The notes beneath the pieces were generated by a model, which did no database searches, was not told the origin of the DNA, and was given only the letters and a program-made list of their open reading frames with translations. From Aestuariibacter sp. (GTDB lineage Bacteria > Pseudomonadota > Gammaproteobacteria > Enterobacterales > Alteromonadaceae): a stretch of DNA of 64,000 nucleotides. Below, piece by piece: positions 1,625-56,883 of the stretch (position 1 is the stretch's first letter; each line of letters begins with the position of its first letter). Where the stretch lies: assembly GCA_047947135.1 (NCBI GenBank), contig CP170457.1, positions 720,027 to 784,026 on the forward strand, written 5' to 3'. Both the position numbers and the translations under genes were made by a program.

Positions 1625-2290
1625 ATGATTAAAGTTCACCATCTAAACAATTCACGTTCACAACGGGTATTATGGCTCTTGGAAGAGTTGCAGCTGGATT
1701 ACGACATCGTGTCTTACCAACGAGACAAACAGACCATGCTGGCCCCCGCAAGCCTGCGCGAAGTGCATCCCCTGGGTAAATCTCCAGTGATTGAAGACAA
1801 AGGTGAAATTATCGCAGAATCTGGCGCAATCATTGATTACTTAGGTCGAGTTTATGGTGCGGGAACATGGCGCCCAACTGAACAACAAGCGCACTTTCAA
1901 CAGTATCAATATTGGTTGCACTTTGCCGAGGGCAGTATGATGTCACCACTGCTGCTGAAACTGGTCATGCAAAAAATCGTTTCCAATGCACCGGCGTTGT
2001 TTATCAGGCCCATCGCCAAAGGTATTGCCGACCGAGTAAACGAGAACTTCATACAACCCAACCTGATCAGGCTACTAACCTATGTAGACACCCACTTAAA
2101 AATCCATGACTGGTTCGCCGGTGAAGAGATTAGTGGCGCGGATATCCAAATGAGCTTTCCGCTGGAAGCGTCGATGCATCGAGGATTGACACTTCCCTAC
2201 GAAGGAATTAACGAATATGTACAACGTGTTCAGGCCAGACCGGCTTACCAAAGGGCACTGAAACGCGGTGGGCAATACGATTACGCATAG
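1625..2290 (+). CDS. Glutathione S-transferase family protein.
   Basis: MIKVHHLNNSRSQRVLWLLEELQLDYDIVSYQRD...VHPLGKSPVIED...ESGAIIDYL shows the GST N-terminal thioredoxin-like fold motifs. A C-terminal helical domain follows. Confidence 0.85.
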   Translation: MIKVHHLNNSRSQRVLWLLEELQLDYDIVSYQRDKQTMLAPASLREVHPLGKSPVIEDKGEIIAESGAIIDYLGRVYGAGTWRPTEQQAHFQQYQYWLHFAEGSMMSPLLLKLVMQKIVSNAPALFIRPIAKGIADRVNENFIQPNLIRLLTYVDTHLKIHDWFAGEEISGADIQMSFPLEASMHRGLTLPYEGINEYVQRVQARPAYQRALKRGGQYDYA

Positions 2291-2307: not shown

Positions 2308-2844
2308 TCAGGCCAGTGCATGACGCTGTATGGTACTCAGAAAAGCTGCCCCGTAGCGCTCTAATTTTGTTCGTCCTACACCATTAATGGTCAAAAAAGC
2401 GCTTTCGTCGACTGGTTGTAATGCCGCCATTTCCGCCAGTGTGGCATCATTGAAGACGACGTAGGGCGGTAATTCCTCTTGCTCAGCTAAACGCTTGCGT
2501 AGATGTTTAAGTTTGGCAAATAAGGCTTTGTCATACTGACGATGCGGTTTTTTACTCGATTTCTGCCAGGTTGACTGCAATCTGGGCACGGCGAGCGTTA
2601 ACGAAATCTCACCGCGCAAAATCGGCCGGGCCGCTTCACACAATTGCAATGCCGATTTTTGCGTAACTGCTTGTCTGATTAGGCCAAGGTGTATCAGCTG
2701 ATTAACTAAGTTCAACCAGTATCCTTCTGGTTTATCTTTACCAATACCAAACACGCTAAGCCGGGCCATATCAGGCGTAATGGCCGCAGTGCTTTTGCCT
2801 TTCAGCAGCGCCAACACGACGTCAATTGAATGACTTTGTTGCAC
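2308..2844 (-). CDS. recQ: RecQ C-terminal fragment (winged-helix plus HRDC domains). It is in the same frame as the upstream fragment and starts at a GTG immediately after the TGA.
   Basis: VQQSHSIDVVLALLKGKS...GIGKDKPEGYWLNLVNQLIHLGL...LPPYVVFNDATLAEMAALQP...INGVGRTKLERYGAAFL aligns with E. coli RecQ residues about 425-609. 4140 and 2844 are in the same frame. Confidence 0.8.
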   Translation of the reverse strand: MQQSHSIDVVLALLKGKSTAAITPDMARLSVFGIGKDKPEGYWLNLVNQLIHLGLIRQAVTQKSALQLCEAARPILRGEISLTLAVPRLQSTWQKSSKKPHRQYDKALFAKLKHLRKRLAEQEELPPYVVFNDATLAEMAALQPVDESAFLTINGVGRTKLERYGAAFLSTIQRHALA

Positions 2845-4140
2845 TCAATAAATTGTCGACAGGATTTTTTGCGCCGCAACTGTGCCATCAAAACGTTTCG
2901 GTGGGTCCAGGCAAATGTCGCAATTGCCGCAGGCTTGAGCGCGATATTCAGAGAAATAATTTAACAGGATTTGGCGGCGACAGGTCTGGGCTTCAGCAAA
3001 AGAAACTAACGCCTGAAACTTGTGCTGCTCAATCTCGCGACGCACCTCGTGCTGTCCTGACGCTATCCAGTCGCGGTTGCGCGCAACATCTTTTTCATCA
3101 AACAGTAGCAGTGCTTCTGCCGCTAATCCGTCTCGTCCGGCGCGACCTGTTTCCTGATAATATGACTCGATGCTGCGGGGCAGGTCATAATGTACCACAA
3201 AACGTACATTGGATTTATTGATACCCATGCCAAACGCCACAGTTGCGACAATCACCTGCACGTTGTCATTGATAAAATCCCGCTGTATCTGAGTCCGTTG
3301 AGCACTCTCCATACCGGCATGATAACCCGCGGCGCTGATCCCTTCTGCTTTAAGTTGCAGGGCCAGATCATCAACTTTTTTACGGCTGTTGCAATACACA
3401 ATACCGCTACCATCCTGACGTTTTAAGTAACTCAACAACTGCTGCAACGGGCGCAGCTTTTCGGTCAATAGATAGCGAATGTTAGGTCGGTCAAAACTGC
3501 TTTTAAATACATTCGCGTCAGGAATATGCAGCTGCATGAGAATATCCTGTTGCGTTGTATTATCGGCTGTAGCAGTCAACGCCATCAATGTTGCCTGTGG
3601 AAACCAGTTGCGCAGCATTCCCAGTTGACGATAGTCAGGGCGAAAATCATGCCCCCAATGGGAAACACAATGCGCTTCATCGACAGCAATAAGACTCACC
3701 GTCAGCTGTTGCAATGCATTCAAAAAATTCGGCTGCAGTAGTTTTTCCGGGGATATATAAAGCAGCTTGCTCTGTCCCGACAAAAGGGATTGAAAAGCCT
3801 GCCGCTGTTCTTCTGGCGATTGCCCAGAGTTAATCGTAACTGCCTGAACACCAGAGGCCTTTAAGGCATCCACCTGATCCTGAATCAAAGAAAGCAGCGG
3901 TGAAATTACCACTGAAATACCGGGCAATAACAACGCGGGTAGTTGGTAACAAATGGATTTACCACCACCGGTAGGCATCAACACCAGGGCGTCTTGCCCC
4001 TGCAAAACGGACTGCATAATATCCAGTTGGTTCGGTCGGAAACTACGATAACCAAAAATATCCGCTAACAGATCGGGTAATTGTGAACCATCCGGACGAC
4101 TTTGTTCTGATGGGTGACAGGCAGTACTGGCTTGTGACAA
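2845..4140 (-). CDS. recQ: ATP-dependent DNA helicase RecQ, N-terminal fragment (helicase core plus Zn-binding RQC part). It is terminated by an in-frame TGA.
   Basis: FGYRSFRPNQ, LMPTGGGKSICYQLPALL, DEAHCVSHWGHDFRPDY, Zn-finger CRRQILLNYFSE...CGNCDICLDPP. It ends ...AQKILSTIY and then TGA at 2845-2847. Confidence 0.85.
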   Translation of the reverse strand: MSQASTACHPSEQSRPDGSQLPDLLADIFGYRSFRPNQLDIMQSVLQGQDALVLMPTGGGKSICYQLPALLLPGISVVISPLLSLIQDQVDALKASGVQAVTINSGQSPEEQRQAFQSLLSGQSKLLYISPEKLLQPNFLNALQQLTVSLIAVDEAHCVSHWGHDFRPDYRQLGMLRNWFPQATLMALTATADNTTQQDILMQLHIPDANVFKSSFDRPNIRYLLTEKLRPLQQLLSYLKRQDGSGIVYCNSRKKVDDLALQLKAEGISAAGYHAGMESAQRTQIQRDFINDNVQVIVATVAFGMGINKSNVRFVVHYDLPRSIESYYQETGRAGRDGLAAEALLLFDEKDVARNRDWIASGQHEVRREIEQHKFQALVSFAEAQTCRRQILLNYFSEYRAQACGNCDICLDPPKRFDGTVAAQKILSTIY

Positions 4141-4205
4141 ACTTGCGCAACTTTGATTCTTATTTTGCCGTAGTTTAGCGAATTACCGTTAGGAGTGCAC
4201 TTGTA

Positions 4206-4679
4206 ATGTCCGGGGAAACCTTGCTCGACAATCAACAAATGGCCAGTATTGTCATGGATATTTTTGACCGACGTTTGCCATACAACCAGTTTTTAGGGTT
4301 TCAGGTAGACAAGTCAGATTTAGCGCAGGCAAAAATACAACTGCCCTGGCAAGATAGCTTGATGGGCAACCCTTTTCACAAGATCCTGCACGGTGGTGTT
4401 ACGTCTGCTATTCTGGACACTGTGGGTGGATTAAAAGCCATGTTGTATGCCGCTCAGGAAATGGAACCGATGTCACCACAAGCATTTAGCCAGCGTATGG
4501 CGAATATCGGCACCATCGATTTACGAGTCGACTATTTACGTCCGGGCAAGGGAGAAATGTTTGTTGCAACGGCAGACATCATCCGGAAAGGCAATAAAGT
4601 CGCGGTTTGTCGTATGGAGTTGCACAACGAGTCCGGCACCCATATCGCATTTGGCACCGGCACTTATATGATGTCTTAA
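4206..4679 (+). CDS. yigI: Hotdog-fold thioesterase (YigI/PaaI family).
   Basis: HGGVTSAILDTVGG...IDLRVDYLRPGKG...ATADIIRKGNKVAVCRMELHNESG is the PaaI/4HBT-type hotdog motif. It sits next to rarD and recQ, as yigI does in E. coli. Confidence 0.8.
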   Translation: MSGETLLDNQQMASIVMDIFDRRLPYNQFLGFQVDKSDLAQAKIQLPWQDSLMGNPFHKILHGGVTSAILDTVGGLKAMLYAAQEMEPMSPQAFSQRMANIGTIDLRVDYLRPGKGEMFVATADIIRKGNKVAVCRMELHNESGTHIAFGTGTYMMS

Positions 4680-13248: not shown

Positions 13249-13578
13249 TTAACCGATATTTTCGTTAATAAAATCTGTTAATTGCGTTTTGGATAATGCA
13301 CCTACTTTGGTGCCAACAACATTTCCATCCTTAAATAACAACAGCGTAGGAATACCACGAATACCGTATTTTGGTGGAGTCTCATTGTTATCATCGACAT
13401 TCATCTTGGCAACTGTTATCTTGCCGTCATACTCTTCGACAATCGCATCCAACAGTGGCGCAATCATTTTACAAGGACCGCACCAAGGTGCCCAAAAATC
13501 AACTAGAACAGGTTTCTCGGCCTTGATTACATCATCTTCAAAAGAACCGTCACTTATTTGGACTATTTTGTCATTCAT
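13249..13578 (-). CDS. trxA: Thioredoxin 1.
   Basis: WCGPCK active site. About 65% identical to E. coli TrxA along the full 109 aa. Confidence 0.95.
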
Positions 13579-13680
13579 TCATTTCTCCATAGATACTGTA
13601 CGTCCCTTCAAGGGGACGAATATTCACACGTATTTATATAGGAACTGTTTTTTAATTCAAGCACTGATATGCTATAAGCT

Positions 13681-14931
13681 ATGCAAACAACACATTTAAC
13701 TGATACACATTTTTCCGAATTAGGGATTCACGCAGATATTTTGGCCGCTTTAAAAGCTGCCAGTTTCGAGCATTGTACCCCTATTCAGGCTTTGAGCTTA
13801 CCCCAATTGCTGCATGGACAAGATATTGCAGGGCAAGCGCAAACAGGCACAGGCAAAACCATGGCCTTCCTGATCGCCACCTTTCATTACTTATTGACGC
13901 ATCCTCAGGAGAATGATGCGCAACCCCGGGCCATTATCATGGCGCCGACACGCGAATTAGCGGTGCAGATCCATAAAGATGCTGAACTTTTGTCCAAAAA
14001 CTGCAACATAAGTCTTGGTTTGATATACGGTGGAGAAGGTTACCAAAGCCAGATGGAAACGCTGCAAAAAGGCGTAGACATCATCATTGGCACCACAGGC
14101 CGCATCATTGATTATTACAAACAAGAGTTATTTAGCCTGCGCCACATTCAGGTCACTGTGCTGGATGAAGCTGATCGCATGTTTGATTTGGGTTTCATCA
14201 AAGACATCCGCTATCTGTTGCGTCGTATGCCTGCTGCCACCGAAAGACTCAGTATGCTGTTTTCAGCGACACTGTCATATCGCGTGCAAGAGCTGGCGTA
14301 TGAGCACATGGACAATCCAGTACATGTGCAGGTTGATGCTGAGCAGAAAACCGCAAAACGTATTGTAGAAGAACTCTTCTATCCTTCCGACCATGACAAA
14401 ATGTTATTATTACTCACCCTGATGGAAGAAGAATGGCCAGAAAAAGCCATTGTTTTTGCCAATACCAAACACAGCTGTGAGAATGTTTTTGATTGGTTAG
14501 TCGCAGATGGACACCGAGTGGGCTTATTAAGTGGCGACGTGCCACAGAAAAAGCGTTTGCGCATTCTCGATGATTTTGACAAAGGCGTTCTGGATGTACT
14601 GGTTGCCACCGACGTAGCAGCACGTGGACTGCACATCGATAAGGTCTCTCACGTATTTAATTACGATTTGCCTGATGATGCCGAAGATTATGTGCATCGT
14701 ATCGGACGTACTGGGCGAGCAGGGAAAAGCGGCCATGCCATCAGCTTTGCCTGTGAAAAGTATGCGCTTAATCTGCCAGCCATTGAAAGTTACATCAGTC
14801 ACTCTATTCCGGTAACGGATTATTTTCATGATGCGCTGTTAACCGATGTTACACCGCCGAGGAGAACCCATCGCAAGCGTGCGCACCGGGATAAACGTCA
14901 ACATCAAAAAAGGCAGAGTAACCGCAGTTGA
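13681..14931 (+). CDS. rhlB: ATP-dependent RNA helicase RhlB (DEAD-box).
   Basis: AQTGTGKT (Walker A), PTRELA, DEAD ([10 protein letters not shown]), [13 protein letters not shown], and an Arg-rich C-terminal tail. Divergent from trxA, as in E. coli. Confidence 0.9.
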
Positions 14932-16137: not shown

Positions 16138-19075
<2,938 letters not shown>

Positions 19076-19849
19076 TTAAATCGCAAACAGCTGCTGGGCA
19101 TTTTCATAACTGGCCTGCGCCACATCTTCAATAGTCACTCCTTTTATCTCTGCGACCGTCTGCGCCACTACAGGAAGAAACTTCGGCTCATTACGACGCA
19201 CTTTGTTAGGCAATGTTTTAGGTAGTAAATACGGTGCATCCGTTTCCAGCAACAGTCTATCCATAGGTAACTCCGCCACAGCATTTTGTAAGTCTATGCC
19301 TCGTTTTGGATCACATACCCAGCCAGTTATGCCAATGTATAAACCCAATGACAAATAGGTCTGCATTTGCCTAGCATTGCCGGTAAAGCAATGTGCAACG
19401 CCATGGTCTATCTGGTATCGCTGTAGCAGCGCAATTTGCTCTTCGAATGCATCACGCTCATGCAAAAAAACCGGTTTGCCATAGTCTTTTGCCAGTTGTA
19501 ATTGCGCCGCGAAAACAGCTCGTTGTCCGGATTGCGAGGAATAGTTGCGATTAAAATCCAAACCACATTCACCCACGGCCACCACTTGTGGTGAAGCCAA
19601 CAGGGTGCGTAGATGTTCCAACCAGTCATCACTGACAGCATCGGCATCATGGGGATGCACACCCGCGGTACTATAGAGAGTTAACGTTGTGTTTTCGGTT
19701 AACGCCAGTGCCGCTGCGCTTTCCTGCTCATTGGTGCCGGTGATAATAATCGTGTCGACACCCGCAAGTCGCGCCTCAGCCAGAACCCCATTCAGGTCCT
19801 GATGAAAGCGCTTATTGGTTAGGTTAACCCCAATATCACAGAACGTCAC
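19076..19849 (-). CDS. tatD: TatD-family Mg-dependent DNase. The start is taken at GTG (V)TFCDIGVNL.
   Basis: FCDIGVNLT...IITGTN...VAVGECGLDF...HCFTG...ETDAPYL are the TatD metal-binding motifs. The GTG at 19849 has a GGAAAG RBS and aligns with the E. coli MFDIGVNL start. The longer ORF to 19906 would overlap the upstream gene. Confidence 0.8.
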   Translation of the reverse strand: MTFCDIGVNLTNKRFHQDLNGVLAEARLAGVDTIIITGTNEQESAAALALTENTTLTLYSTAGVHPHDADAVSDDWLEHLRTLLASPQVVAVGECGLDFNRNYSSQSGQRAVFAAQLQLAKDYGKPVFLHERDAFEEQIALLQRYQIDHGVAHCFTGNARQMQTYLSLGLYIGITGWVCDPKRGIDLQNAVAELPMDRLLLETDAPYLLPKTLPNKVRRNEPKFLPVVAQTVAEIKGVTIEDVAQASYENAQQLFAI

Positions 19850-19868
19850 TGGCCGTATCTTTCCGGCA

Positions 19869-20402
19869 CTAGCTACTGCGCTTAACCAAAATGCGCTTTT
19901 TACCACCTTGTTCTTTCAGGTAAAAGGCGCCCATCATGCCTTTACTGATAACGACAGCCTCTCCAACTCGAAGATTCTGCAGCGTATCGCCTGTAGACTG
20001 GCGCCACACCTGACCATTATCCAGCGTAATCAACAAACGGTCTTTGCCATACTTTTCGATCTTTCGTACCGTCGCAACGATTTCTGAAAGCGCATCACGT
20101 GACTCTTTGCGGATTCCAAATTCACTTTCCGCATCTGATACGCGAGGTTGAGATGTGGCCGGGTAATCTGCATTTGGTGCACTATAACTCTTTGTGGCAC
20201 GCTGGCGTTCAACAAATTCCGGTAACTCCACATCCTGCATCCCATTGGCTCGTTGAGCCAGTCGGTCGAAGCATACCAGCCGCTTTAAAGAATTATCTAC
20301 ACGACTACAGGCCTGCATTGCCTCAGACAAGGTCTCGGCCTGCAGCGCTGTAGAAAAATTGATTACAAATAGGGTACCTAACACCTTGATAAGGGTTCTC
20401 AT
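19869..20402 (-). CDS. Hypothetical secreted protein inserted between tatC and tatD.
   Basis: Signal peptide MRTLIKVLGTLFVINFSTALQA, 2 Cys. Its start ATG overlaps the tatC TGA (ATGA), which suggests translational coupling. No family recognised. Confidence 0.6.
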   Translation of the reverse strand: MRTLIKVLGTLFVINFSTALQAETLSEAMQACSRVDNSLKRLVCFDRLAQRANGMQDVELPEFVERQRATKSYSAPNADYPATSQPRVSDAESEFGIRKESRDALSEIVATVRKIEKYGKDRLLITLDNGQVWRQSTGDTLQNLRVGEAVVISKGMMGAFYLKEQGGKKRILVKRSS

Positions 20403-21154
20403 ACTACTTCCTGATCCTTATTGTTTTGTTCTTCATCTTCATTAGTTTGAGCGTATAGACCACCAATAAGCACGCCAAGTTCAAACAGCAGCCACATTGG
20501 TAACGCCAGCAGGGTTTGTGATATGGGATCGGGAGGTGTCATTAGCATGCCAATAACAAATACCGATACAATGACGTAGGGGCGTTTCGCCCGCAAACTT
20601 TGCGCATTGGTAAACCCAGTCCAACACAACAATACAATCGCAATTGGGATTTGAAACGATACCCCAAAAGCAAAAAATAACTTAAGCACAAAATTAAGAT
20701 AACTATTTATGTCCGTACTGATAAGCACACCATCTGGCGCGACCCCCACAAAAAAAGGAAAGGCCAACGGGAATATAACGTAATACGCAAATGCAACCCC
20801 CGCATAAAACAGTAAACTGCTGGACAGCATCAGCGGTGCAATCAGCTTTTTTTCTTTTTGATAGAGTCCGGGGGCAACGAAAGCCCAAGCCTGATATAAC
20901 ACATAGGGAATAGCGACAAAAAAAGACAGTACCAAGGTCAACTTAAAGGGAGCAAAGAACGGTGAAGCGACGTCTGTCGCGATCATTTGGGCACCTTCCG
21001 GTAACGCGCTAATCAATGGTTCAGAAAGCCAGCGATACAGATCCTGAGCAAAATAAGCAAGCGCCAAAAAAATCAGTAATACGCTTAACACCGCTTTTAG
21101 TAAACGGCTACGTAATTCCAGCAAATGCTCAAAAAGGGTACTGGCTTCAGACAT
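20399..21154 (-). CDS. tatC: Sec-independent translocase TatC.
   Basis: Six TM helices. HLLELRSRLLK...MIATDVASPFFAPFKLTL...PYVLYQAWAFVAPGLY...TPPD close to E. coli TatC. Confidence 0.95.
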   Translation of the reverse strand: MSEASTLFEHLLELRSRLLKAVLSVLLIFLALAYFAQDLYRWLSEPLISALPEGAQMIATDVASPFFAPFKLTLVLSFFVAIPYVLYQAWAFVAPGLYQKEKKLIAPLMLSSSLLFYAGVAFAYYVIFPLAFPFFVGVAPDGVLISTDINSYLNFVLKLFFAFGVSFQIPIAIVLLCWTGFTNAQSLRAKRPYVIVSVFVIGMLMTPPDPISQTLLALPMWLLFELGVLIGGLYAQTNEDEEQNNKDQEVV

Positions 21155-21456
21155 TAGTTTTCTTTGGAATAAGGATTTTGCACATCTTTAGCGGCAGACT
21201 TTAGCTGTTCAACACTCTCTTTGAGTTCCGGTGAAAGGTCTTTCATACCTTGTTGTTCCGCCTTTTTCAGATTCTCGTGCAACTCCTGGATACGCAACTG
21301 CTGTTCAACTTCCTGACGAAATCCCTGTGCCATGCCTTTGATGTTGCGCATCGTTTTACTGACACTGCGAATCGCCCCAGGCAATCTTTCCGGACCCAGC
21401 ACGAGCAATGCAATCACGGCAATTATGAGAATTTCCCAAAAGCCAATATCAAACAT
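21154..21456 (-). CDS. tatB: TatB.
   Basis: MFDIGFWEILIIAVIALLVLGPERLPGAIRSV matches the TatB N-terminus. Overlaps the tatC start by 1 nt. Confidence 0.9.
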   Translation of the reverse strand: MFDIGFWEILIIAVIALLVLGPERLPGAIRSVSKTMRNIKGMAQGFRQEVEQQLRIQELHENLKKAEQQGMKDLSPELKESVEQLKSAAKDVQNPYSKEN

Positions 21457-21464
21457 GGCTTATA

Positions 21465-21701
21465 CTACACGTCTTGTTTCTGTTTTGGCTTTTGACTGTC
21501 TGCGGACTGCTCAGACTTATCCTGCATTTCCTGAGGAGCTTCGAAATCGGCGTCTTTTTTCTGATCGTCTGTCACTGCGCTTTTAAAGCCTTTCACAGCA
21601 GAACCAAGGTCGCTGCCTAGCGTGCGTAATTTTTTTGTGCCGAACAATAACACTACGATCACAAAAATAATTAACAATTGCCAAATACTAATGCCACCCA
21701 T
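21465..21701 (-). CDS. tatA: TatA. The start is taken at MGGISIWQ with an AAGGAG RBS.
   Basis: [43 protein letters not shown] is identical to E. coli TatA for the first roughly 25 residues. The ORF-track start at 21740 adds 13 residues with no RBS. Confidence 0.9.
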
Positions 21702-22072
21702 GAGATTCTCCTTGAATAAGTCGCCGTGCATTATACCCATGCTGGGCGAAAATGCACCGCTTTACATAGCGCTAAATGTAACATAGCTGTTGACGGCACA
21801 GCAGTGTTATTTTACATCGATACAGCCCCACCAGAGCAATTTGTCTGCATTACAACAACACTAAAAGCTCAGTGGCACTGCTTGTTATTAGACACTCAAT
21901 TTACGTAATTAGCTCACTTTTGTGTCAACATAGAATGTTAAAGGAGCAAATATAGATTGGGGTTGGTATTACGCCTGTTCCTGGACTAACGTTAAATTAT
22001 AAATTTTCGTCAACAATAAGTGCATGTCTAACAACAGATTGGTGCATTGAATTAATCAGTAAAGGGATCTCA

Positions 22073-22993
22073 TTGAGACTGCAGAATAGCATTTTTAGCC
22101 TCTTGATATTTGGCTTTTGTCCCGTTTGGGCGGAAGACAAACAGGTGCCATGGTTTGATGTATTACATGATGATATTTCTCATTCGGTCAACGTTTCAGC
22201 AGTTTGGCTGGACGATTTCTTTGGTCACGAAGAATACCAATCAAATGAGATGGCCAGAGGTGGCGCCAGGGTCCAACTGGGGATAGAGCCACGTAGTCGG
22301 GATCTGATGGAATTCGAATCACGAGTACGTATTCGAGTGAAATTACCCAAACTAAAAAACCGGGTTGATCTGGTCTTCAGTGATTATGACGAAGAATTAG
22401 AAAAGGCCCCGATAAAAGCCGCTCAAAATGAAGTCCTTCAAAGTCAAAATCGTTTCAATTTGGCACTCCGTTGGAGCAACAAAAAAGGCCAAGATAGTTT
22501 TTGGTCCAACCGCATCGGTATTGGCAGAAAGGCACAGCCCTTTGCCAGGACTCAATACACCAGCCGAGGCACTTTATCAGATACACAACGCTATCGATGG
22601 CTAGCCTCAGCATACTTTTATCAAAATGAAGGGTTTGGCTCTCATCTTGGCTTACAGCTGGAACAGGATCTTAATCAAAGTTCTGTGGTACGTCTGGATA
22701 ATGACTTTTTCTTTCGAGATGAGTCTGACGACTGGCTATGGCAGCACAATTTATACAACATGACGCAGTTATCTGATTCTTCGGCCTTGATCAGCGGCAT
22801 TTATGTCGACGGTTTAACTCAGCCCAATTATCAGGTAAATGAGTATTTGTTAAGTGTGCGATGGCGCAAAAACGCCTTACGTGAATGGCTTTTTTTCGAA
22901 GTCGAACCTTTTGTTCTGTGGCGTCGTGATGAAAGTTTTGATGCCTCTTATGGACTGGCCATGCGGATTGAAGGCTATTTTGGGCATTATTGA
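22073..22993 (+). CDS. Hypothetical outer-membrane or secreted protein.
   Basis: Signal peptide MRLQNSIFSLLIFGFCPVWA. Rich in alternating aromatic/polar stretches and ends in an aromatic residue, consistent with a beta-barrel OMP. It is on the strand opposite the ubi/tat block, between ubiB and tatA. Confidence 0.55.
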   Translation: MRLQNSIFSLLIFGFCPVWAEDKQVPWFDVLHDDISHSVNVSAVWLDDFFGHEEYQSNEMARGGARVQLGIEPRSRDLMEFESRVRIRVKLPKLKNRVDLVFSDYDEELEKAPIKAAQNEVLQSQNRFNLALRWSNKKGQDSFWSNRIGIGRKAQPFARTQYTSRGTLSDTQRYRWLASAYFYQNEGFGSHLGLQLEQDLNQSSVVRLDNDFFFRDESDDWLWQHNLYNMTQLSDSSALISGIYVDGLTQPNYQVNEYLLSVRWRKNALREWLFFEVEPFVLWRRDESFDASYGLAMRIEGYFGHY

Positions 22994-23007
22994 TAGCCGG
23001 ATTGGTG

Positions 23008-24642
23008 TTACTGGTACAGCTTCACCCAGCTTTTACCCCAGGCTCCCGCACCTAAAAGACACAACAGTGCAATTGTCCAGATGGGCAATTGATAAACCGG
23101 TAATAACGCTGCCACCATAAAGCACACGCCACCCGCTACCGCATAGACTATTGCTTTACTATTCTCCCGCTGGCGCTTCAACATATCTTCATGCAGTTTG
23201 CGCTGAAATTCCGGTAAGGTTTTCAGTTGCTTCATGGAGTCAAAAACCAGATCTGGCACGTCCGGCAGTTTTTCACTCCAGAAAGGTAAATTATTCTTCA
23301 CCTTGTGCAGCATGGCGCTCAATCCAATTTGTTCTTTCATCCATTGTTCCAAAAAGGGTTTCGCGGTTTCCCATAAGTCCAGCTGTGGGTAAAGTTGTCG
23401 TCCCAGACCCTCTATGTACAACAGCGTTTTTTGTAGCAACACCAGTTGCGGTTGCACTACCATGTCAAAACGACGCGCGGTATTAAATAGTTGCAGCAGT
23501 ACGTGACCGAATGATATCTCTGCGAGGGGTTTATGAAAAATAGGTTCGCAAACGGTGCGAATCGCCATTTCAAACTCATCGATATTGGTATCAGCTGGGA
23601 CCCAACCCGAGTCAACGTGCAATTCGGCCACCTTGCGATAGTCAGAATTAAAAAAGGCCACGAAATTCTCTGCCAGGTAGCGCTTATCATCACGATTCAA
23701 TGTGCCGACTATGCCAAAGTCAATGGCAATATATTGTGGTGACTGCAAGTTTTCCGTTGAGATAAAGATGTTGCCGGGATGCATATCCGCGTGGAAAAAG
23801 CTGTCCCGAAATACCTGCGTGAAAAAAACCGAGACGCCTCGTTCAGCGAGCAGCTTAAAGTTTGTGTCGTGCGCTTTTAAGGTTTCGATGTCAGCAATGG
23901 GGATGCCATAAATACGCTCCATCACCAACACATTTTGGCGGCACAAATCCGGATAAATATAGGGAATATATAACTCTGCGGATGCTTCGAAGTTTTTCCG
24001 CAACTGAATGCCATTGGCGGATTCTCTGAGTAAATCCAGCTCATCTTCGATGGTCTTGCGATACTCTTCAACAACTTCGACCGGGCGTAAGCGCCGACCA
24101 TCCGGTAACACTTTTTGCACCACCCAGGCAATCACCCGCATCAACTCAATATCAGCATTAATGGTCTCAGCGATATTAGGGCGAATCACCTTGATCACGA
24201 TATCTTTGCCATCTTCTTTCAGAGTCGCTGTATGCACTTGAGCAATCGACGCTGAAGCCAACGGCTCTGTAGCAAAATCATCAAAGTATTCAGATATATC
24301 TTTTATTTGCAGCGCGCTTTCAATAATAGACTGGGCTTGTTCGCCATCAAAAGGCTGCACTTTGTCTTGCAGGAGAGCTAACTCATCGGCGATATCTGGG
24401 GGTAATAAGTCGCGCCGCGTCGACAACATTTGTCCAAATTTAATAAATACCGGTCCCAGTCCCTGCAATGCCAGTCGCAATCTCTGGCCGTCCGTTTGCT
24501 CGGGATATTTGTTGTATAACCAGAAAAAGAAACACCGAAAAAACCTGAAATACCAGGGCAGAAATCGTTTCGGAATTAATTTGTCTAAACCATGATTGAG
24601 TAAGGTTTTGGTGATGGTGTACAGGCGAATTAAGCGCATCAA
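23008..24642 (-). CDS. ubiB: Ubiquinone biosynthesis protein kinase-like UbiB.
   Basis: [23 protein letters not shown], ...AAASIAQVH..., [10 protein letters not shown], two C-terminal TM helices. Overlaps ubiJ by 4 nt. Confidence 0.95.
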
Positions 24643-25259
24643 TCAGCCCTGCCGTTTTCAAGTTGGGTCAGTCGTTGTTCTAGCCTATCTACCTGTGCAT
24701 TGATGCGGTGTACATCCTCAATAAAGGCGTCCACTAACAGCGGGTGCGCTGCGACCTGTTTCTCTTCTAACGCAGCGTCTTTGAGTATTTGTTGCATGGT
24801 AAGGTGCAGTGCATGTGCTTTTTGCTTGAGCGCCTTGCCGGTACTGACCAGATTATAGGCCAGAACATCACCCACACGTTGTGCCAACAACTCTTCCCAG
24901 TCTATGGATAGTTCACTGAACAATGCCGAAAACTGCTGTGCCGTGTGCAAATCGCCTTCCAGTTGCAGCTGATCACTTTTAATCATGCGGGTTAATTGGC
25001 TACTGTCCTTAAGAGTTGAGATAGACCAGACACTGACCGCAATACTGACATCACTTCCAGAGGCAGAATCCTTTTCTTCCGCCATCACCAGGACTTTATC
25101 AGCAAAACAAAACCGCAAAGCAAAGGGTATTTCCTGCAGAGAAACTCGGATCTGTTTGTCAGCCAGCTTATTAAAGCGCTGTGCCGCACCAGGGTCCAAG
25201 GTCAACAGAGTATTGATACCATTTTCAATAACGCTGGTGACTAACTGCTGAAATGGCAT
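24639..25259 (-). CDS. ubiJ: Ubiquinone biosynthesis accessory factor UbiJ (SCP2 domain).
   Basis: [23 protein letters not shown] shows the YigP/UbiJ N-terminal SCP2-like lipid-binding domain. It sits between ubiE and ubiB. Confidence 0.8.
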
Positions 25260-26014
25260 TAAAACTTAAACCCCTTGTGCAGGGCAACAATTCCCCCTGT
25301 CAGGTTGTAATATTGCACCTGCTCAAACCCGGATGTTTGCATCATGCTTTTTAGGGTTTCCTGGTCCGGGTGCATCCGAATTGATTCAGCTAGATACTGA
25401 TAGCTGGCAGCGTCATTTGCCACTAACTGTCCCATTTTGGGCAGAATATTAAATGAGTACCAATCATACAATTTGGCAAAGTTGTCGTTTTCGGGCTTGG
25501 AAAATTCCAGCACCAATAATCGCCCACCGGGTTTTAAGACCCGAAACATAGACGATAAAGCCCGCTGTTTGTCTGTGACATTGCGCAATCCGAAGGCAAT
25601 AGTGACTAAATCGAAATGATTATCCGGAAAGGGCAAACATTCTGCATCTGCCTGAACGCATTCAAGATTACCGACAATACCGGCATCACGCAGTTTATCT
25701 CGACCGACCTGCAACATGGACTCGTTGATATCAGACAGCACGACATGCCCGGTTGGACCGACGATACGCGCGAACTTTGCCGCCAGGTCTCCCGTTCCAC
25801 CAGCCAGATCCAACACCTTGTGTCCTGGACGAATGCCACTACAATCCAGTGTAAAGCGTTTCCACAAACGATGGATACCGAGAGACATAACATCGTTCAT
25901 AATGTCGTATTTAGCGGCTACAGAATGAAAAACATCGGCAACTAAGCCGGCTTTCTGTTTTTTATCCACTTGTTTAAAGCCGAAATGGGTGGAATTCTCT
26001 TCCTGCACTGACAT
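25259..26014 (-). CDS. ubiE: Demethylmenaquinone/ubiquinone C-methyltransferase UbiE.
   Basis: HFGFKQV...[29 protein letters not shown]...[15 protein letters not shown] motif. Full-length, about 70% identical to E. coli UbiE. Confidence 0.95.
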
Positions 26015-30302: not shown

Positions 30303-30953
30303 ATGTCAGCGCTGCTCAACGATTTATTTAGTTTTCCAATTGTAATTTATGCTTTCCCAATGCTGCTTTGCATCATGTTCTGGGTCATTACTTTAATTGG
30401 GTTTGTCGATATTGAAGTCTTTGATTTTAGTACCGACAGCGAATTATCTGAAAGTGGTGCATCGGATGGAGGTGGTTGGTTACAGTCACTGGGATTGGAT
30501 GGCGTGCCACTTACCGTCGCAATTACGCTGGTTGACACTTATGCCCTGGCATTTACTTATCTTGCCAAAAAATACTTGATGCCACTGTTTGATGGTTTAG
30601 CAAGTGCTATAGCCATTGGCTCAATTACCGCACTTGTCGCTTTGCTCTTGGCTATACCTGTTTCGGCAATCTGCATTAAGCCACTCCGGCGGTTCTTCCA
30701 TACTCATGAAGGAGAGAGGAAGTCAGACTTAATTGGCACAATTTGCACCGTAACAACTGGAAGCGTTAACCAAGGATTTGGTCAAGCTACTGGTGATAAC
30801 GGCATGGTTTTTAGCATTAGAGCACAGGAGCCCAATGAGCTTGCTAAGGGCTCCAGAGTGGTACTAATTGAATACCTTCCCGCAGAAGACACCTATCAAG
30901 TGGTCAGCGAATCAGAGCTTATGGCCATGTCCTCTGAACACACAACGATTTAA
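30303..30953 (+). CDS. yqiJ: NfeD-like inner-membrane protein, YqiJ/DUF1449-like (partner of flotillin).
   Basis: About 4 TM helices, followed by a soluble C-terminal region of roughly 70 aa (DLIGTICTVTTGSVNQGFGQATGDNGMVFSIRAQEPNELAKGSRVVLIEYLPAEDTYQVV). This matches the beta-barrel C-domain of NfeD/YqiJ. It sits 35 nt upstream of a YqiK-type flotillin gene. Confidence 0.65.
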   Translation: MSALLNDLFSFPIVIYAFPMLLCIMFWVITLIGFVDIEVFDFSTDSELSESGASDGGGWLQSLGLDGVPLTVAITLVDTYALAFTYLAKKYLMPLFDGLASAIAIGSITALVALLLAIPVSAICIKPLRRFFHTHEGERKSDLIGTICTVTTGSVNQGFGQATGDNGMVFSIRAQEPNELAKGSRVVLIEYLPAEDTYQVVSESELMAMSSEHTTI

Positions 30954-30988
30954 CTTTCTATATAACTGCAATCCTCAGGAGCACAAAC

Positions 30989-33013
30989 ATGAATGCAGGT
31001 AACAACTGGATGTTTTGGCTGGCGCTGGCTGCCGGTTTATTTTTCTTCGCCATGATCCTCACGCTATTTATGGCTCGGCTTTATCGTAAAGTAGAGCAAG
31101 GAAAAGCGATGATTGTTAACACCATGCGAGCCGAACCTAAAGTTACTTTTACAGGCGCATTGGTCTTGCCGGTATTTCACAAAATGGAAATTATGGACAT
31201 TTCCTTACGCACTATTGAAGTTGACAGAAACGGCTCTGATGGTTTGATTTGTAAAGATAATATTCGAGCCGATATAAAGGTTGGTTTTTTTGTTCGCGTA
31301 AATAAGAACACCGACGATGTTCTCAAGGTAGCTCAAGCTATTGGATGTCAGCGAGCATCCAATATTGAAACACTTGAGGACTTGTTTAGCGCCAAGTTCT
31401 CAGAAGCACTCAAAACCGTTGGTAAGTCTCTCGAATTTGAAGAGTTGTATGCCAAAAGAGATAAGTTTCGCGACCTCATCATCGACAATATCGGTACTGA
31501 CTTAAATGGCTATATTCTTGAAGATGTTGCCATTGATTATCTGGAACAAACTCCTCTTGATAAACTAGATTCCAATAACATCCTGGACTCGCAAGGTATT
31601 CGTAAAATTACCGAGTTGACCGCCCAACAACATATTCAGACCAATGTCTTTCGCCGGGATGAAGAAATGAAGATTAAGGCTAAAGATGTTGAAACCCGAG
31701 AAGCCGTACTGGAACTCGAGCGGCAACAGGCCGAAGCTGAAGCCAAACAATTGAGAGAAATCGAAACAGTAAAAGCGCAAGAAGAAGCAGAAACCGAAAA
31801 AGTAAAATATGAAGAGCACATGAAAGCTGAACAAGCCCGGGTTCAGGCCGCTCAGGAAATCGAAGTACAGGAACAAAATAAACAACGAGAAGTTGAAGTT
31901 GCAGAAAATAACCGTTTACGAGCTGTAGCGATAGAAGAAGAAAACGTGAAAAATGCTAGAGAGCTAGCAAAAATTGAACGTGAAAAAGAAGCAGCCTTGC
32001 AAGCTATTGCCGCTGAAAAATTATTAGAGCATGAGAAACGAGAAATTGCGGAAGTGATTAGCGGCCGTATTGAAGTAGAAAAAAATGTGGCTGAGCGTGA
32101 AGAAGAAATTAATGAGCTCAGAAAAGTGGCAGAAGCAGAACGTTTAAAGAAAGCGCAAATCATCACCGCTGAAGCTCAAGCACAAGAAGCACTCGTCAAA
32201 GATATCAAAGCCGCCGAAGCTGGTGAGCAGGCTGCTACTCACAAAGCCAAAGAAAAAGCCGTATTAGCACAAGCTGATCTGGAAGTGGCTGAACTCAATG
32301 CGCAAGCAAAAGCGAAAGAAGCTTCTGGTTTAGAAGCTCTTGCTGCCGCTGATGGTCTGGCCGAAGCAAAAGTCATGCAGGCAAAAGCCTCTGCATCAGA
32401 GGAACAAGGCATGGCACAAGTTAGAGTGGAAGACGCTAAAGCTGATGTACTGGAGAAAAAAGGACTGGCGGAAGCTGAGGTCGTGGCTAAAAAGGCGGTT
32501 GCTGAAGCTGAGGGCATGACCAAAAAGTTTGAAGCCATGGCGACAATGTCAGATCAACAACGTGCACACGAAGAATTCCGTATGAGGATTGATAATCAGC
32601 ACAAAGAAGCTCTGGAAATGATTTCTGCTAATCGCGATATTGCTGGTGAACAGGCAACCGTATTGGCTGAGGCATTAAAGCAAGCCAAAATTGACATTGT
32701 TGGTGGTGATACCGGATATCTGGACCGCTTTATTAGATCGATCTCAGTTGGAAAAGGCATTGATGGGGCCATTCAACGAAGTGATACGCTCTCTACTGCT
32801 TTTGCAGACCACATGAATGGGGATGCCAGTTTTGTTGAAGACGCAAAATCACTAATCAGTAGCTTTGGTGGTGCAAGCGGCAATGCTAAGGATACAGCCA
32901 TGACTGCACTAATGGCGAAACTTCTTAAAGAAAGTAAAGACAATCCCCACATTCTGGAGATGCTATCTCAAGGGATAAATAGTATTAAAAGCACCCCCAC
33001 AGAAAAACAGTAA
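30989..33013 (+). CDS. yqiK: Flotillin-family SPFH/band-7 protein (YqiK-like).
   Basis: N-terminal membrane anchor (WMFWLALAAGLFFFAMILTLFMA). SPFH domain (residues about 40-230). Then about 350 aa of E/A/K/Q-rich heptad coiled coil (the flotillin domain) and a C-terminal tail. 674 aa. Confidence 0.85.
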   Translation: MNAGNNWMFWLALAAGLFFFAMILTLFMARLYRKVEQGKAMIVNTMRAEPKVTFTGALVLPVFHKMEIMDISLRTIEVDRNGSDGLICKDNIRADIKVGFFVRVNKNTDDVLKVAQAIGCQRASNIETLEDLFSAKFSEALKTVGKSLEFEELYAKRDKFRDLIIDNIGTDLNGYILEDVAIDYLEQTPLDKLDSNNILDSQGIRKITELTAQQHIQTNVFRRDEEMKIKAKDVETREAVLELERQQAEAEAKQLREIETVKAQEEAETEKVKYEEHMKAEQARVQAAQEIEVQEQNKQREVEVAENNRLRAVAIEEENVKNARELAKIEREKEAALQAIAAEKLLEHEKREIAEVISGRIEVEKNVAEREEEINELRKVAEAERLKKAQIITAEAQAQEALVKDIKAAEAGEQAATHKAKEKAVLAQADLEVAELNAQAKAKEASGLEALAAADGLAEAKVMQAKASASEEQGMAQVRVEDAKADVLEKKGLAEAEVVAKKAVAEAEGMTKKFEAMATMSDQQRAHEEFRMRIDNQHKEALEMISANRDIAGEQATVLAEALKQAKIDIVGGDTGYLDRFIRSISVGKGIDGAIQRSDTLSTAFADHMNGDASFVEDAKSLISSFGGASGNAKDTAMTALMAKLLKESKDNPHILEMLSQGINSIKSTPTEKQ

Positions 33014-33028
33014 CCTCTAAGAGAATAG

Positions 33029-33059
33029 GCTGGCATCACCCTGTTACCACGATGCCAGC
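33029..33059 (+). terminator. 9-bp stem hairpin just after the flotillin stop. Possible attenuator or partial terminator ahead of the giant gene.
   Basis: gctggcatc-accctgttaccac-gatgccagc, followed by ttgattc. A second 6-bp hairpin (tacaccCAGACCggtgta) lies about 20 nt further on. Confidence 0.35.
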
Positions 33060-33127
33060 TTGATTCAATACACCCAGACCGGTGTACTGATCATTAAACC
33101 CAGTTAGAGAATGTAGCAAGAGACGTT

Positions 33128-36100
33128 TTGGAGCAAAACATGAGTAACGAATCTGAGATTGATACCGCCGTCGCAGAGGGAGGCGCTTACGAAGTCATTC
33201 GCAGCAGACTAACTGAACAAGCGGATTCTCTAGACAAACAGGTAGAAGTACTAAATCAATCCAGGATCTCTGAATTCGGCCAACCACAAATGGAAATCAC
33301 CAGCCGGGTTAGAGTAAGGACAGAAAACAACTGTATCGCTCGTGACATTGTTCCAGTGGGGAATCTATTACTATTTGGCTACAACGTTTTCATCGGCTTA
33401 AAAAAAGAAACTCAGGTAAATGATGTATTTAGCTTATTTCAGCTCAAATCAGAAGAGGGTGCCATTGGGCTGGTAGAACAAGATCTTAGTAAATCCTTTC
33501 TTAGTGATGCCAAATTCCAAAAAGATTTTAAAGAACTCTACGTTTATTACAAAGAAGCCCGTCTTTTACAGCTGAAGATCCAGAATGATCTCTTATTTGC
33601 GGTTTTCCAGATTGGTAAAAAGCTCACAGATGTACGTGTATTTCAGTGGATGATAACCAAGGAAGAAGAACCCAAGTACATCGACAACCGGGGGGAAAGA
33701 AGCCTTCAAATAATTCCATCACATGATTTTGAATGGCAATCTGTAACCCGTGAGCAACACGTTAATGGAACACATGCCCACGTAAACATCGGTGACAAAG
33801 TTTTTGTAGAAACCATTAAAGGGTCGTTGACAGTAAAAATAGAAAACAATACTGAAGATGGTCTGGGCATTTATAGTGAACCCGTAGATGACAAGAATCA
33901 AAGTTTGTCTGATGCTGATATACAATTCGCCGAAGTAGGCAGTCTGGTATTATTAAAAATCTTGCCGTATAGAGAGCAAGAATACCGATTTTTGGTGTAC
34001 AACACTCGAACCCAAAAAGTAAACAGAATAGATGCCATTGGCTCTGCTTGTATTTCATTGCCAGAAGACCACGGCATAATCTTTCCGGGTGGATACTACT
34101 TACAAAGTGGTGAAACAAAATCTTTCCCCGACGACATTCCCGGATTGCAGTTTAAGAGACAAATTCGCTCTCCCAACGGCGAAGATGTTCTTTATGTTTT
34201 TTATGAACCAGAAACGGGGTTATGCGGTTTGTATTGCTACAACATGATACATAAAGCGCTAAAAAACCCTATTTACGCCCATGGTTACAGTATTTTTAAT
34301 GACGGTACCGCTATTTTCTTTAGCTCGGAAGAGGAACCTACCCGGATTCATCCGATGCAGGTTTGGCAAACACCTTTTTATAGTGACGAATTTGCTGCTA
34401 AACAGCCAACTACAGATTCTTTTTTTAGTCGAATTGGAAATCGAGAACTGGTAAGAGGCATATCAGATATCAGTAGTATCTGTAGACTCATCGAAAATCC
34501 CAGGCCCACCAGACTCCTGTATGAAGATTTAATCAAGTCATGTAAAGATCTGTTCGACTCCTACTATTGGCTTGAAGAAAATGAAGTAGAGGATATCCAT
34601 AAAACTATCTCTGAAATCACAGCAACTTCAGAGCTGGTAATAGATGAATTTGAAAAGGTCTCACAAATTCGTTTAAAGGCAGACGCTCTGTTGAAAACTG
34701 CCAAGGACAAGCAAAAACACATCGTCACTGCTATTAATCCAAAGTCCTGGAAAACCCCGGAACAGTATGTTCAGGCTCTGGTAGCGTTAAGACATCAACG
34801 GGGGCACTTAATATCATTACAGGAACAACGCTACATAGATAAAAAGGTTCTCAAGAGTTTAGAGAGCGAACTGCAAGAGCATTTTGATAAATTGAGTACC
34901 ACAACAGTCGCTTTCCTGGCTAATGACGACTCATTGGCACCCTATCGCACTAAAATTGAAGAGTTACAAAAGGCAATTAATAAGATCGAAGTTGTAGTGG
35001 AAATAGCGCCGCTGGTTGAAGAGTTAGATTCCCTTTCTCATGGTCTGGATGTCGTTACAGAAATATTGAATGGTTTAGAAGTTGAAGACGCCACGGTACG
35101 AACGAAAATCATAGATGATATATCCACTATTTACGGCCAATTAAATCAAATTAAGGCCCTTGCCAGAAACCGTAGAAAGCAATTAGGTAGTGGTGAAGCT
35201 AGTGCGGAATTCGCAGCTCAATTCAGACTTTTCTCGCAAAGTATCAATAATGCATTAGCCCAGGTAGATACGCCTGACAAGGCTGATCAGGAATTATCCC
35301 GACTTATGATTCAACTGGAAGAACTGGAATCTAAATTCAGTGAATATGACCAGTTTCTTGACGAGATTCTCGCGAAAAGAGAAGAGTTGCACAGCGCGTT
35401 TGAAGAGCGCCGACAAACTTTGTTGGAAGAAAGACAGCGACGCAGTCAAAATTTGTTTACGGCGGCAGAACGAACCCTGAAAGGTGTGAATCGCAGGGCA
35501 TCTACTTTTAAATCAGAAGACGACCTGAATAGCTATTTTGCTTCCGATCCCATGATCATGAAGTTAACAGAGCTCAGTGCTAATCTGCGAGAGTACGATG
35601 ACCAGGTGAAAGCAGATGATGTAGAAGCTCAACTAAAAGCCGCGAAGGAAACGGCCATTAGAGCACTCCGAGATAAACAGGATATTTACGAAGACGGGGG
35701 GAATGTAATCAAACTGGGAGCTCACAAATTTAGTGTTAACTCTCAGGTCTTGGATTTAACCCTCATTCCCAAAAATGACGGATTATACCGGCATCTCATT
35801 GGAACCGATTTTTATGAGAAGCTACAAAATAAAGCGTTGCTCGAATTACAGCCCTATTGGCAACAGGCTTTGGTGTCGGAGAACAACGAAGTTAGTCGCT
35901 GCGAGTATCTAGCATCTTTGATTATCAAAGATGCGGAACAACAAGCAAATGATCTGTCATTATCTAAACTGTATAAAGCAATAGACTCACAACAAGAATT
36001 ATCCGATTTAGTGGATTCTTATATCAGTGACAGGTATCAGGAAGGTTACGAAAAAGGAATTCACGACAACGACACCTGCCACTTACTGTCAGCGTTAATC

Positions 36101-49374: not shown

Positions 49375-50034
49375 ATGGCTCCTAACATTGAAGCGCCGGT
49401 AACCTCGGCTGACAAAGTGTTTTTACAAATGCGCAGTGATATCGTTGAAGGCGAGATCCCTGCCGGCAGCAAATTAAGCGAAGCAGAATTGGCTAATCGT
49501 TATGAAGTAAGCCGAGCGGTCATACGTGAGGCTATCAACCGTTTGCAGGCCAACCACTTAGTCGAACGCCGTGCCAACGTCGGGGCCAAAGTAATACAAC
49601 TCACCCAAAACGGACTCATTCAGCTTTATCAGGTTCGCGAGTCCTTAGAAGGAATGGCAGCCAGACTGGCTGCTGACAACATGGCTGATGAGGAAATTGT
49701 GAACCTTCGAGCTTTGCTAGACACCCATTCTGAACGAGTTGAGCAAGACGAAACCTATTATCAGGAAGCCGGCGATGTCGATTTTCATTATCGCATTATC
49801 AAAGGCAGTAAAAATCAGCAGTTGATTCATTTATTGGTGAATGGTCTTTATCACTTGGTGCGAATGTACCGAGTGCAATTTGGCATGTCCGGTCCGCGGG
49901 TCACTACCGCATTGTCAGAACATCGCCATATCGTCGCCGCCATCGCTAATCGCGATGGTGAATTGGCAGAAATCCTTATGCGACGGCATATCCATTATTC
50001 CAAAAATCACATTGCCGCAAAATTAACCCCTTAA
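49375..50034 (+). CDS. GntR/FadR-family transcriptional regulator of the methylcitrate operon (PrpR-like, FCD domain).
   Basis: N-terminal wHTH ([33 protein letters not shown]). C-terminal FCD helical domain. It lies 17 nt upstream of prpB. Confidence 0.8.
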
Positions 50035-50051
50035 CCCAGGAGGTCTTCATT

Positions 50052-50933
50052 ATGATCAGTGCAGGAAAAAGATTTCGTACCGCTTTAGAGGCAAACAAGC
50101 CTTTACAAATTGTTGGAACGATCAACGCCTATAGCGCCATTATGGCTAAAAAAATAGGACATCAGGCGATTTATCTGTCTGGTGGTGGTGTGGCTAACGC
50201 ATCTTATGGTTTGCCAGATTTGGGCATGACCTCTCTTAATGATGTAATAGCTGACGTGCAACGGATTACCTCTGCTTGCGATCTTCCCCTGTTAGTAGAC
50301 ATCGATACGGGTTGGGGCGGTGCGTTCAATATTTCCAAAACAGTCCGCGATATGGAAAAAGCCGGCGCGGCTGCGGTACACATGGAAGATCAGGTCGCAC
50401 AGAAGCGCTGCGGTCATCGACCCAATAAAGAAATTGTCTCCACTGAAGAAATGGTGGATCGCATTAAAGCCGCCGTTGACGGCCGCACCGATCCGGACTT
50501 TTTTATCATGGCCCGTACCGACGCGTTTGCACAGGAAGGACTGGATGCGGCTATCGCGCGCGCCAAGGCCTATATTGCCGCGGGAGCCGATGGCATCTTT
50601 GCAGAAGCCATACAGACCGAAGAACATTACCGAGCCTTCTCTGAAGCGCTGGATGTTCCCATCCTGGCCAACATTACCGAATTCGGCAAAACCGAATTAT
50701 GGAATAAAGAACAATTAGGAGCATGGGGTGCAGCCATGGTGCTTTATCCATTAAGCGCGTTCCGTGCCATGAACAAAGCAGCAGAAATGGTATATCAGTC
50801 TATCCTTGAGCAAGGTGACCAGAAAGCCGTCGTTGAAATGATGCAAACCCGAGCTGAGCTATACGATTATCTTGGCTATCACAATTATGAAGCGAAACTG
50901 GATGCCCTATTCGCTAAAGGCAAAAATAAATAA
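50052..50933 (+). CDS. prpB: 2-methylisocitrate lyase.
   Basis: ICL/PEP-mutase fold motifs: [41 protein letters not shown] (the catalytic KRCGH loop). Confidence 0.95.
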
Positions 50934-50948
50934 ATTCAGGAGGTTAAC

Positions 50949-52073: not shown

Positions 52074-52132
52074 ATATTAGTGGAGCACAGAGGTGCTCCT
52101 TTCCTGATTGACACTAGCGCCATGGAGTCATT

Positions 52133-54724: not shown

Positions 54725-54730
54725 GGAAAT

Positions 54731-56401: not shown

Positions 56402-56538
56402 TCTTTGCATTTCCTATTATTACTTTTATCCAGCTGCAAACTACCTTGTTAACAAAAAAACACAAGCTCAGCAAAGCCTGTCAGCGACTTGTAAATGCAA
56501 AGAATTTATTACAAGCCGCTGAATTCAGGCCTAAGTCA

Positions 56539-56883
56539 TTAACCTTCAGTGACTCTCTCACTGGCATGTCGTTGCATACTATTTGTGAGTCGACGCGCCT
56601 TTTTACCATGCAGCGCCAGATACAGCAGAGGCCCAAAGGAGCCAAGGAACAGCGTAATGACCACCCACGGCCAGGGATTGATACCGGCTCGTTTTGCTTC
56701 CGGGATAAGCCAGTTAAACACCAGCAGCAGCGCAATCACCAAATCTGCAAACACCTGCCAACCTGCGGGACTGGCGAAGGCATAATCCACAATGCCAATA
56801 TACCCCACCTGCATGACGGCATAGGCTGAAAGCACAGTAAAAGGAACCAGTAACACAATGGCAAATAAACGTTGAAAGGACAT
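56539..56883 (-). CDS. Small hypothetical membrane protein (3-4 TM helices).
   Basis: MSFQRLFAIVLLVPFTVLSAYAVMQVGYIGIV...WQVFADLVIALLLVFNWLI...PWVVITLFLGSFGPLLYLAL. A competing + strand ORF (56446-56829) looks non-protein-like. Confidence 0.45.
   Translation of the reverse strand: MSFQRLFAIVLLVPFTVLSAYAVMQVGYIGIVDYAFASPAGWQVFADLVIALLLVFNWLIPEAKRAGINPWPWVVITLFLGSFGPLLYLALHGKKARRLTNSMQRHASERVTEG

Follow-up and report, generated by a model that had tools for sequence, protein, structure and literature searches.

The window analyzed here, a 64,000-nucleotide stretch of the genome of Aestuariibacter sp. (GenBank assembly GCA_047947135.1, contig CP170457.1, positions 720,027 to 784,026), carries on its minus strand two adjacent open reading frames (ORFs) that resemble the two parts of the DNA helicase RecQ and are separated by a TGA codon followed directly by GTG. 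The question is whether these are two genes or one, and what the TGA represents. The initial annotation offered three options: (a) a genuine nonsense mutation producing a pseudogene or a split gene, (b) a sequencing error, or (c) a site of UGA read-through or of termination-reinitiation at the adjacent GTG. The evidence supports the first two of these, and a real, recent single-base nonsense mutation is, on comparison with the available RecQ sequences, the probable explanation.

A single interrupted gene

The minus strand from 4140 to 2308 translates in one frame with a single asterisk (…AQKILSTIY*VQQSHS…), and the list of minus-strand ORFs, together with their translation, bears out the initial annotation in that the 431- and 178-codon ORFs share this frame and that the TGA at 2847-2845 is their sole separator. 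Searches against Pfam and the NCBIfam recQ profile TIGR01389 likewise confirmed that the two ORFs jointly carry the full RecQ domain set (Table 1). The SF2 helicase core is represented by full-length profile matches to both DEAD (2.7e-27) and Helicase_C (5.2e-26); the RecQ_Zn_bind profile is matched at positions 2 to 66 of 66, with C387, C404, C407, and C410 invariant; and the HRDC profile is matched at positions 2 to 68 of 68 (9e-22) within the 3′ ORF. The RQC domain is divided by the stop codon, with profile positions 22 to 112 of 114 falling in the 3′ ORF. TIGR01389 is covered from position 3 to 413 by the 5′ ORF and from 415 to 590 by the 3′ ORF, and this contiguous coverage means that the interruption affects a single codon and that nothing has been inserted, deleted, or shifted in frame. 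The pair represents one interrupted gene, not a chance juxtaposition. Their scores against this profile are 611 bits (5′ fragment) and 139 bits (3′ fragment) at a cut-off of 640.2 bits, and no uninterrupted ORF at this locus reaches that equivalog cut-off. The locus belongs by descent to the bacterial RecQ helicases (TIGR01389/PRK11057), yet it is not an intact recQ ORF.

Table 1. Coordinates of the recQ locus and its parts in the 64,000-nucleotide window
Feature	Nucleotides	Strand	Residues (aa)	Remarks
Whole recQ locus	2308..4140	-		610 codons, one internal TGA, natural stop TGA
recQ 5′ fragment	2845..4140	-		431 codons, TTG start at 4140-4138
DEAD	4038-3550	-	35-197	5′ fragment, Pfam
Helicase_C	3459-3127	-	228-338	5′ fragment, Pfam
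RecQ_Zn_bind	3093-2908	-	350-411	5′ fragment, Pfam
RQC/winged helix, first ~20 residues	2907-2848	-		5′ fragment
Premature stop TGA (plus strand TCA)	2845..2847	-		In place of an invariant Arg; tetranucleotide context UGA-G
GTG (Val433) directly 3′ of the internal stop	2842..2844	-		Nominal start codon, no Shine-Dalgarno (SD) sequence upstream
recQ 3′ fragment	2308..2844	-		178 codons, natural stop TGA at 2310-2308, no further disabling changes
RQC/winged helix, remainder	2841-2572	-	2-91	3′ fragment, Pfam
HRDC	2529-2329	-	106-172	3′ fragment, Pfam

The break does not coincide with a domain boundary but lies ~21 residues into the RQC/winged-helix fold (RQC profile position ~21 of 114). The suggestion that the 431-aa product would keep the helicase core and lose the winged-helix (WH) and HRDC domains therefore needs a partial correction: the helicase core is indeed kept, but the loss of the WH domain is incomplete, as the first ~20 RQC/WH residues are retained.

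The gene is a stand-alone unit, divergent from a 4HBT thioesterase gene (4206-4679, plus strand) and convergent with a GST gene (1625-2290, plus strand), and with its neighbors so oriented, polar effects on other genes are not to be expected. A promoter and terminator scan of this unit gave matches at the level of shuffled sequences, none of them in the upstream gap (4141-4205).

The replaced codon, the relatives of this recQ, and the rest of the window

Alignment with the E. coli RecQ catalytic core (PDB 1OYW) places R425 (…LSTIGRV…) at the stop codon, in agreement with the Arg named in the initial annotation. Among the 120 best RecQ homologues, whose alignment gave the residue counts reported here, this position is Arg in all 120. 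The preceding Tyr, which had been described as common at this site, is found in 70 of them, and the next residue is Leu in 84, Thr in 17, Val in 9, and Met in 8. At the nucleotide level, all 65 recQ loci that could be mapped have a CGN codon at the site (CGC in 25, CGT in 19, CGA in 12, and CGG in 9), and CGA accounts for 15% of the Arg codons in the window genes and for 4 of 37 in recQ itself. The proposed origin of the TGA from CGA by one transition is thus plausible: with CGA in use both at this site and in the window, a CGA intermediate followed by a single C-to-T change would be an easy path. The immediate ancestor would then have been the Arg codon CGA, and the change would read G-to-A on the plus strand.

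The closest relatives of this RecQ are encoded on Logan contigs from uncultured organisms and show 85% (protein P0002, contig L081), 80% (P0001, contigs L082 and L083), and 76% (P0003, contigs L084 to L089) identity to it, the last being carried identically on 22 contigs; among named genomes (Lacimicrobium, Aliiglaciecola, and Bowmanella) RecQ is only 60 to 65% identical. The best matches were at 65% identity in a contig scan, 61% in a metagenome scan, and 85% in a search of 5.8 billion proteins. No conspecific copy turned up in these contig, metagenome, and protein searches or in exact look-ups of the 431-aa and 178-aa ORFs and the products of both flanking genes, and none of the top protein matches is a RecQ fragment of ~431 aa. 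The three closest relatives have an uninterrupted recQ, with CGG, CGC, and CGC at the site of the stop, embedded in a common neighborhood of UvrD, RR-GGDEF, EamA, 4HBT, RecQ, and GST, which has the same order in L084. A TGA shared by close relatives would, according to the initial annotation, have pointed to programmed recoding. Compared at the level of sister species, the TGA is shared by no relative (0 of the 65 loci and 0 of the 120 proteins); the orthologues are intact, each with a sense codon in place of the stop, and all of them are fused, with no split form among them. A literature search brought up no relevant work on natural recQ pseudogenes in bacteria.

Two further peculiarities of this gene are found in its relatives as well. 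A non-ATG start codon is shared, being TTG here (4138-4140) and in L084 (at 5313) and GTG in L082 (at 1474), and L081 has a TTG in frame upstream of the called recQ start (~378-500); P0002 was truncated by the gene caller to an internal Met, leaving 569 aa. The non-ATG start is ancestral to the clade and not a second lesion. The winged-helix region (2572-2841, minus strand) of the window RecQ and of P0001 to P0003 is unusually diverged from that of other Alteromonadaceae, and at positions 439 to 458 many residues are rare among the 120 homologues, yet common to the intact close relatives. This divergence is clade specific and not a sign of decay in the window recQ.

Elsewhere in the window, TGA behaves as an ordinary stop codon. 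It ends 14 of the 49 other ORFs, 4 of them in the TGA-G context, and is also the natural stop of recQ. In a six-frame scan for stop codons with 100 or more open codons both before and after them, the recQ TGA was the sole TGA flanked in frame by two long open stretches; the six other flanked stops are all TAA and either mark ordinary boundaries between separate neighboring genes or belong to a shadow frame. The ~50 other ORFs give essentially full-length matches to Pfam profiles, with no stop or frameshift. Normal termination at TGA and the intactness of ~50 genes leave no sign of code reassignment, genome-wide pseudogenization, or an error-prone assembly, and we have rejected genome-wide decay and an alternative genetic code on these grounds. 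The in-frame UGA itself is all that speaks for a selenocysteine codon or a reassigned UGA in this organism. Against this reading stand the use of TGA at those 14 gene ends and at the natural end of recQ, its absence in frame from every other gene of the window, and the lack of precedent for Sec or Trp at the site among the 120 homologues; in addition, folding and Rfam searches found no SECIS-like hairpin 3′ of the stop. This reading is effectively refuted. Within the 64 kb of the window there is no tRNA or sel gene.

Several other loci of the window deserve a brief description. A conserved housekeeping block on the minus strand (16138-26014) comprises ubiE, an SCP2 (UbiJ-like) gene, ubiB (ABC1), a 177-aa ORF, tatC, and tatD; the 177-aa ORF between ubiB and tatC belongs to no family and is possibly tatB. 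Next come a 7TMR-DISM GGDEF sensor, which starts with an ATG directly adjoining the stop codon of tatD, and then hemB. The plus strand carries at 49375-55915 an intact and ordinary 2-methylcitrate (propionate) operon that encodes a GntR/FCD regulator, a PrpB-like PEP mutase/methylisocitrate lyase, the citrate synthase PrpC, an AcnD-type aconitase, and PrpF. At 30303-38257 (plus strand) there are three ORFs in the same orientation, with lengths of 216, 674, and 1,709 aa, of which the 1,709-aa one alone has family matches, namely to DUF3686 (“ATPase involved in DNA repair,” 5.5e-199), to DUF7902, and, near residue 1300, to AAA_5. This block matches no NCBIfam family and no PADLOC system beyond a weak P-loop match to IetA, and a literature search found no paper that mentions DUF3686. 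It has the lowest GC content (0.42) and the strongest AT skew (+0.16) of the window, which suggests that it is an acquired, uncharacterized giant-ATPase module. Finally, five putative genes encoding 127 to 306 aa (13289-13699, 22073-22993, 56446-56829, 60623-61216, and 62279-62899) match no Pfam family at 1e-5, and the first two of these match no NCBIfam family either.

Read-through, reinitiation, and the age of the stop codon

If the UGA-GUG junction allowed reinitiation, the gene could be functionally split, with a separate WH-HRDC fragment that would associate noncovalently with the helicase-Zn core; alternatively, the gene could be leaky, with read-through yielding some full-length RecQ. 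Termination-reinitiation needs stop and start codons that overlap or nearly abut (PMC10666635), and the TGA and GTG, with 0 nt between them, satisfy this spacing requirement. There is, however, no match of at least 4 nt to AGGAGG at positions -20 to -4 relative to the GTG, nor does one precede any of the four in-frame start codons that follow. Of five E. coli gene pairs from which the SD sequence was removed, four showed reinitiation that was lower by 60 to 90% or absent altogether (PMC6728339).

The GTG itself, which the initial annotation highlighted, is not special. The codon after the site is Leu in the three closest relatives (TTG in two, CTG in the third), so that the window gene has acquired a stronger start codon, a point in favor of the split. 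However, ATG, GTG, or TTG occupies this position in 15 of the 65 intact recQ genes (23%), in 8 of them as GTG, and Val at codon 433 is tolerated, being found in the 9 homologues counted above and also in E. coli. The only two departures of the window RecQ from the consensus of 11 relatives, R432stop and L433V, are adjacent, and we considered whether a single event might have changed several nucleotides at once or whether a restart codon might have been selected for. When compared with the 120-sequence alignment, the window RecQ has 50 to 61 unusual residues, and one of them would adjoin the stop by chance with a probability of 15 to 19%, on which basis this idea was rejected.

UGA is the leakiest stop codon in E. 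coli, where tRNA-Trp reads through it, and on the leaky reading a few percent of such decoding would supply enough full-length RecQ; a literature search on UGA read-through yielded chiefly eukaryotic studies, on which nothing here is based. Here, such decoding would place Trp at the position of a fully invariant Arg. The 96 nt around and 3′ of the UGA fold with a minimum free energy z-score of -1.54, and 14 of 200 shuffled sequences fold as well, which is not indicative of a stimulatory RNA structure. Rfam at the gathering threshold matched nothing in the window, and a permissive local search at the stop gave only a spurious microRNA match (E = 3.6).

As in known coupled gene pairs with TGATG or ATGA junctions, the recQ stop is directly followed by a potential start. 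Natural translationally coupled pairs, however, are conserved and usually encode separate subunits; at the recQ locus, the SD sequence is lacking, the arrangement is not conserved, and the two ORFs are halves of one domain-continuous protein cut within a fold. With leaky or programmed UGA recoding it has in common an in-frame UGA inside a coding sequence, but the stop is not conserved, there is no SECIS or stimulatory structure, and the UGA-G context is the same as at four ordinary gene ends. The full preservation of the 3′ fragment is in keeping with a split or leaky recQ; nevertheless, given the TGA found in no relative, the lack of a structure, an SD sequence, or a SECIS element, and the break within a fold, we consider option (c) very unlikely. 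Conservation of the stop, a stimulatory element, an SD sequence, and a conserved split at a domain boundary are all absent, and programmed recoding or a selected split of recQ is accordingly disfavored.

The age of the TGA, if it is a mutation, was approached through the state of the sequence 3′ of it. A dN/dS analysis across the stop was dropped, since saturation at synonymous sites, seen with every relative (pS of 0.76 to 0.90), leaves the ratio undefined; counts of invariant sites, a singleton-branch test, and a simulation of neutral decay were used in its place. In the 3′ part, pN between the window and its relatives is 0.18 to 0.25, with no excess over the 0.24 to 0.25 seen among the intact relatives. 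Where the 11 aligned relatives agree, the 3′ part keeps 44 of 45 residues and the 5′ part 170 of 170. On its terminal branch, the 3′ part has 2 singleton amino acid changes (0.011 per site), compared with 0.045 to 0.079 per site for the intact relatives, and of the four closest sequences, the window RecQ has changed the least. In the simulation, which was limited to substitutions, the outcome “no new stop and at most one invariant residue changed” had P < 0.05 beyond ~0.04 substitutions per site. With no excess of changes, there is no mark of relaxed selection 3′ of the stop, an absence of decay that agrees as well with an error or continued selection on the fragment as with a very young mutation. 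The comparison implies that the stop would be either very young (less than ~0.04 neutral substitutions per site, against a saturated divergence from the nearest relatives), a base-call error, or followed by a fragment under selection.

The same data bear on a sequencing, assembly, or consensus error, in which case the true genome would have CGA (Arg) and encode an intact 610-aa RecQ. Only a single base is changed, the perfectly preserved 3′ fragment and the conservative character of this RecQ are what an intact gene would show, and the collections searched held no second copy of the genome against which the base could be checked. Substitution errors are, however, rare in a finished consensus, no other of the ~50 genes in the 64 kb has a stop or frameshift, and the site lies outside any long homopolymer and contains no GATC or CCWGG methylation motif of the kind that biases base calls. 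We consider such an error rather unlikely and infer that the base call is correct, which leaves a recent nonsense mutation as the preferred reading.

Expected consequences for RecQ

If the TGA is a nonsense mutation, RF2 would terminate translation at it, just as it does at TGA elsewhere in the genome, and the 431-aa product would consist of the two RecA lobes, the Zn-binding domain, and a stub of the first WH helix, with most of the WH domain and all of HRDC absent. A close counterpart is RecQ-ΔΔC, an E. coli construct made up of the helicase and Zn-binding domains only (Bagchi et al. 2018, PMC6144805). Without WH and HRDC, E. coli RecQ shows severely compromised binding of single-stranded DNA (ssDNA) and irregular unwinding; its processivity is ~12.5 bp, strand switching is lost, and SSB can stimulate it (PMC6144805). 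The window product would likewise end just past the Zn domain, with no functional WH and HRDC, so that weak, low-processivity unwinding and poor binding of ssDNA can be expected. Unlike the designed construct, this allele is natural, and ~20 residues belonging to the first WH helix remain in its product, where they may be destabilizing and not helpful; the RecQ proteins of E. coli and of the organism studied here are ~55 to 60% identical. Given the severe impairment of the E. coli protein lacking WH and HRDC, the window allele is expected to be null or a strong hypomorph encoding a severely weakened helicase.

The allele would represent a nascent pseudogene of a nonessential repair gene. It resembles the strain-specific unitary nonsense pseudogenes of free-living bacteria in having one lesion in an otherwise intact, conserved, and nonessential gene, with intact orthologues and with the surrounding genes and their order unaffected. 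Compared with these, the window recQ shows no secondary decay, and its strain specificity is putative.

A lesion of this type is ordinary, and its significance lies mainly in how the locus ought to be annotated: as a recQ pseudogene or an interrupted coding sequence, or with a corrected sequence if the reads disagree, but not as two genes. With the marks of programmed read-through and of a selected split tested and absent, this stop codon teaches nothing new about recoding; should the gene nevertheless be split or leaky, a divided or attenuated RecQ would have arisen naturally and been observed right at its emergence. Provided that the mutation is real, this strain of Aestuariibacter is probably RecQ deficient. 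In E. coli, recQ mutants differ from the wild type in RecF-pathway recombination and in how they deal with stalled forks, and they show increased illegitimate recombination; similar effects could follow here and would be relevant to genetics and evolution experiments with the strain.
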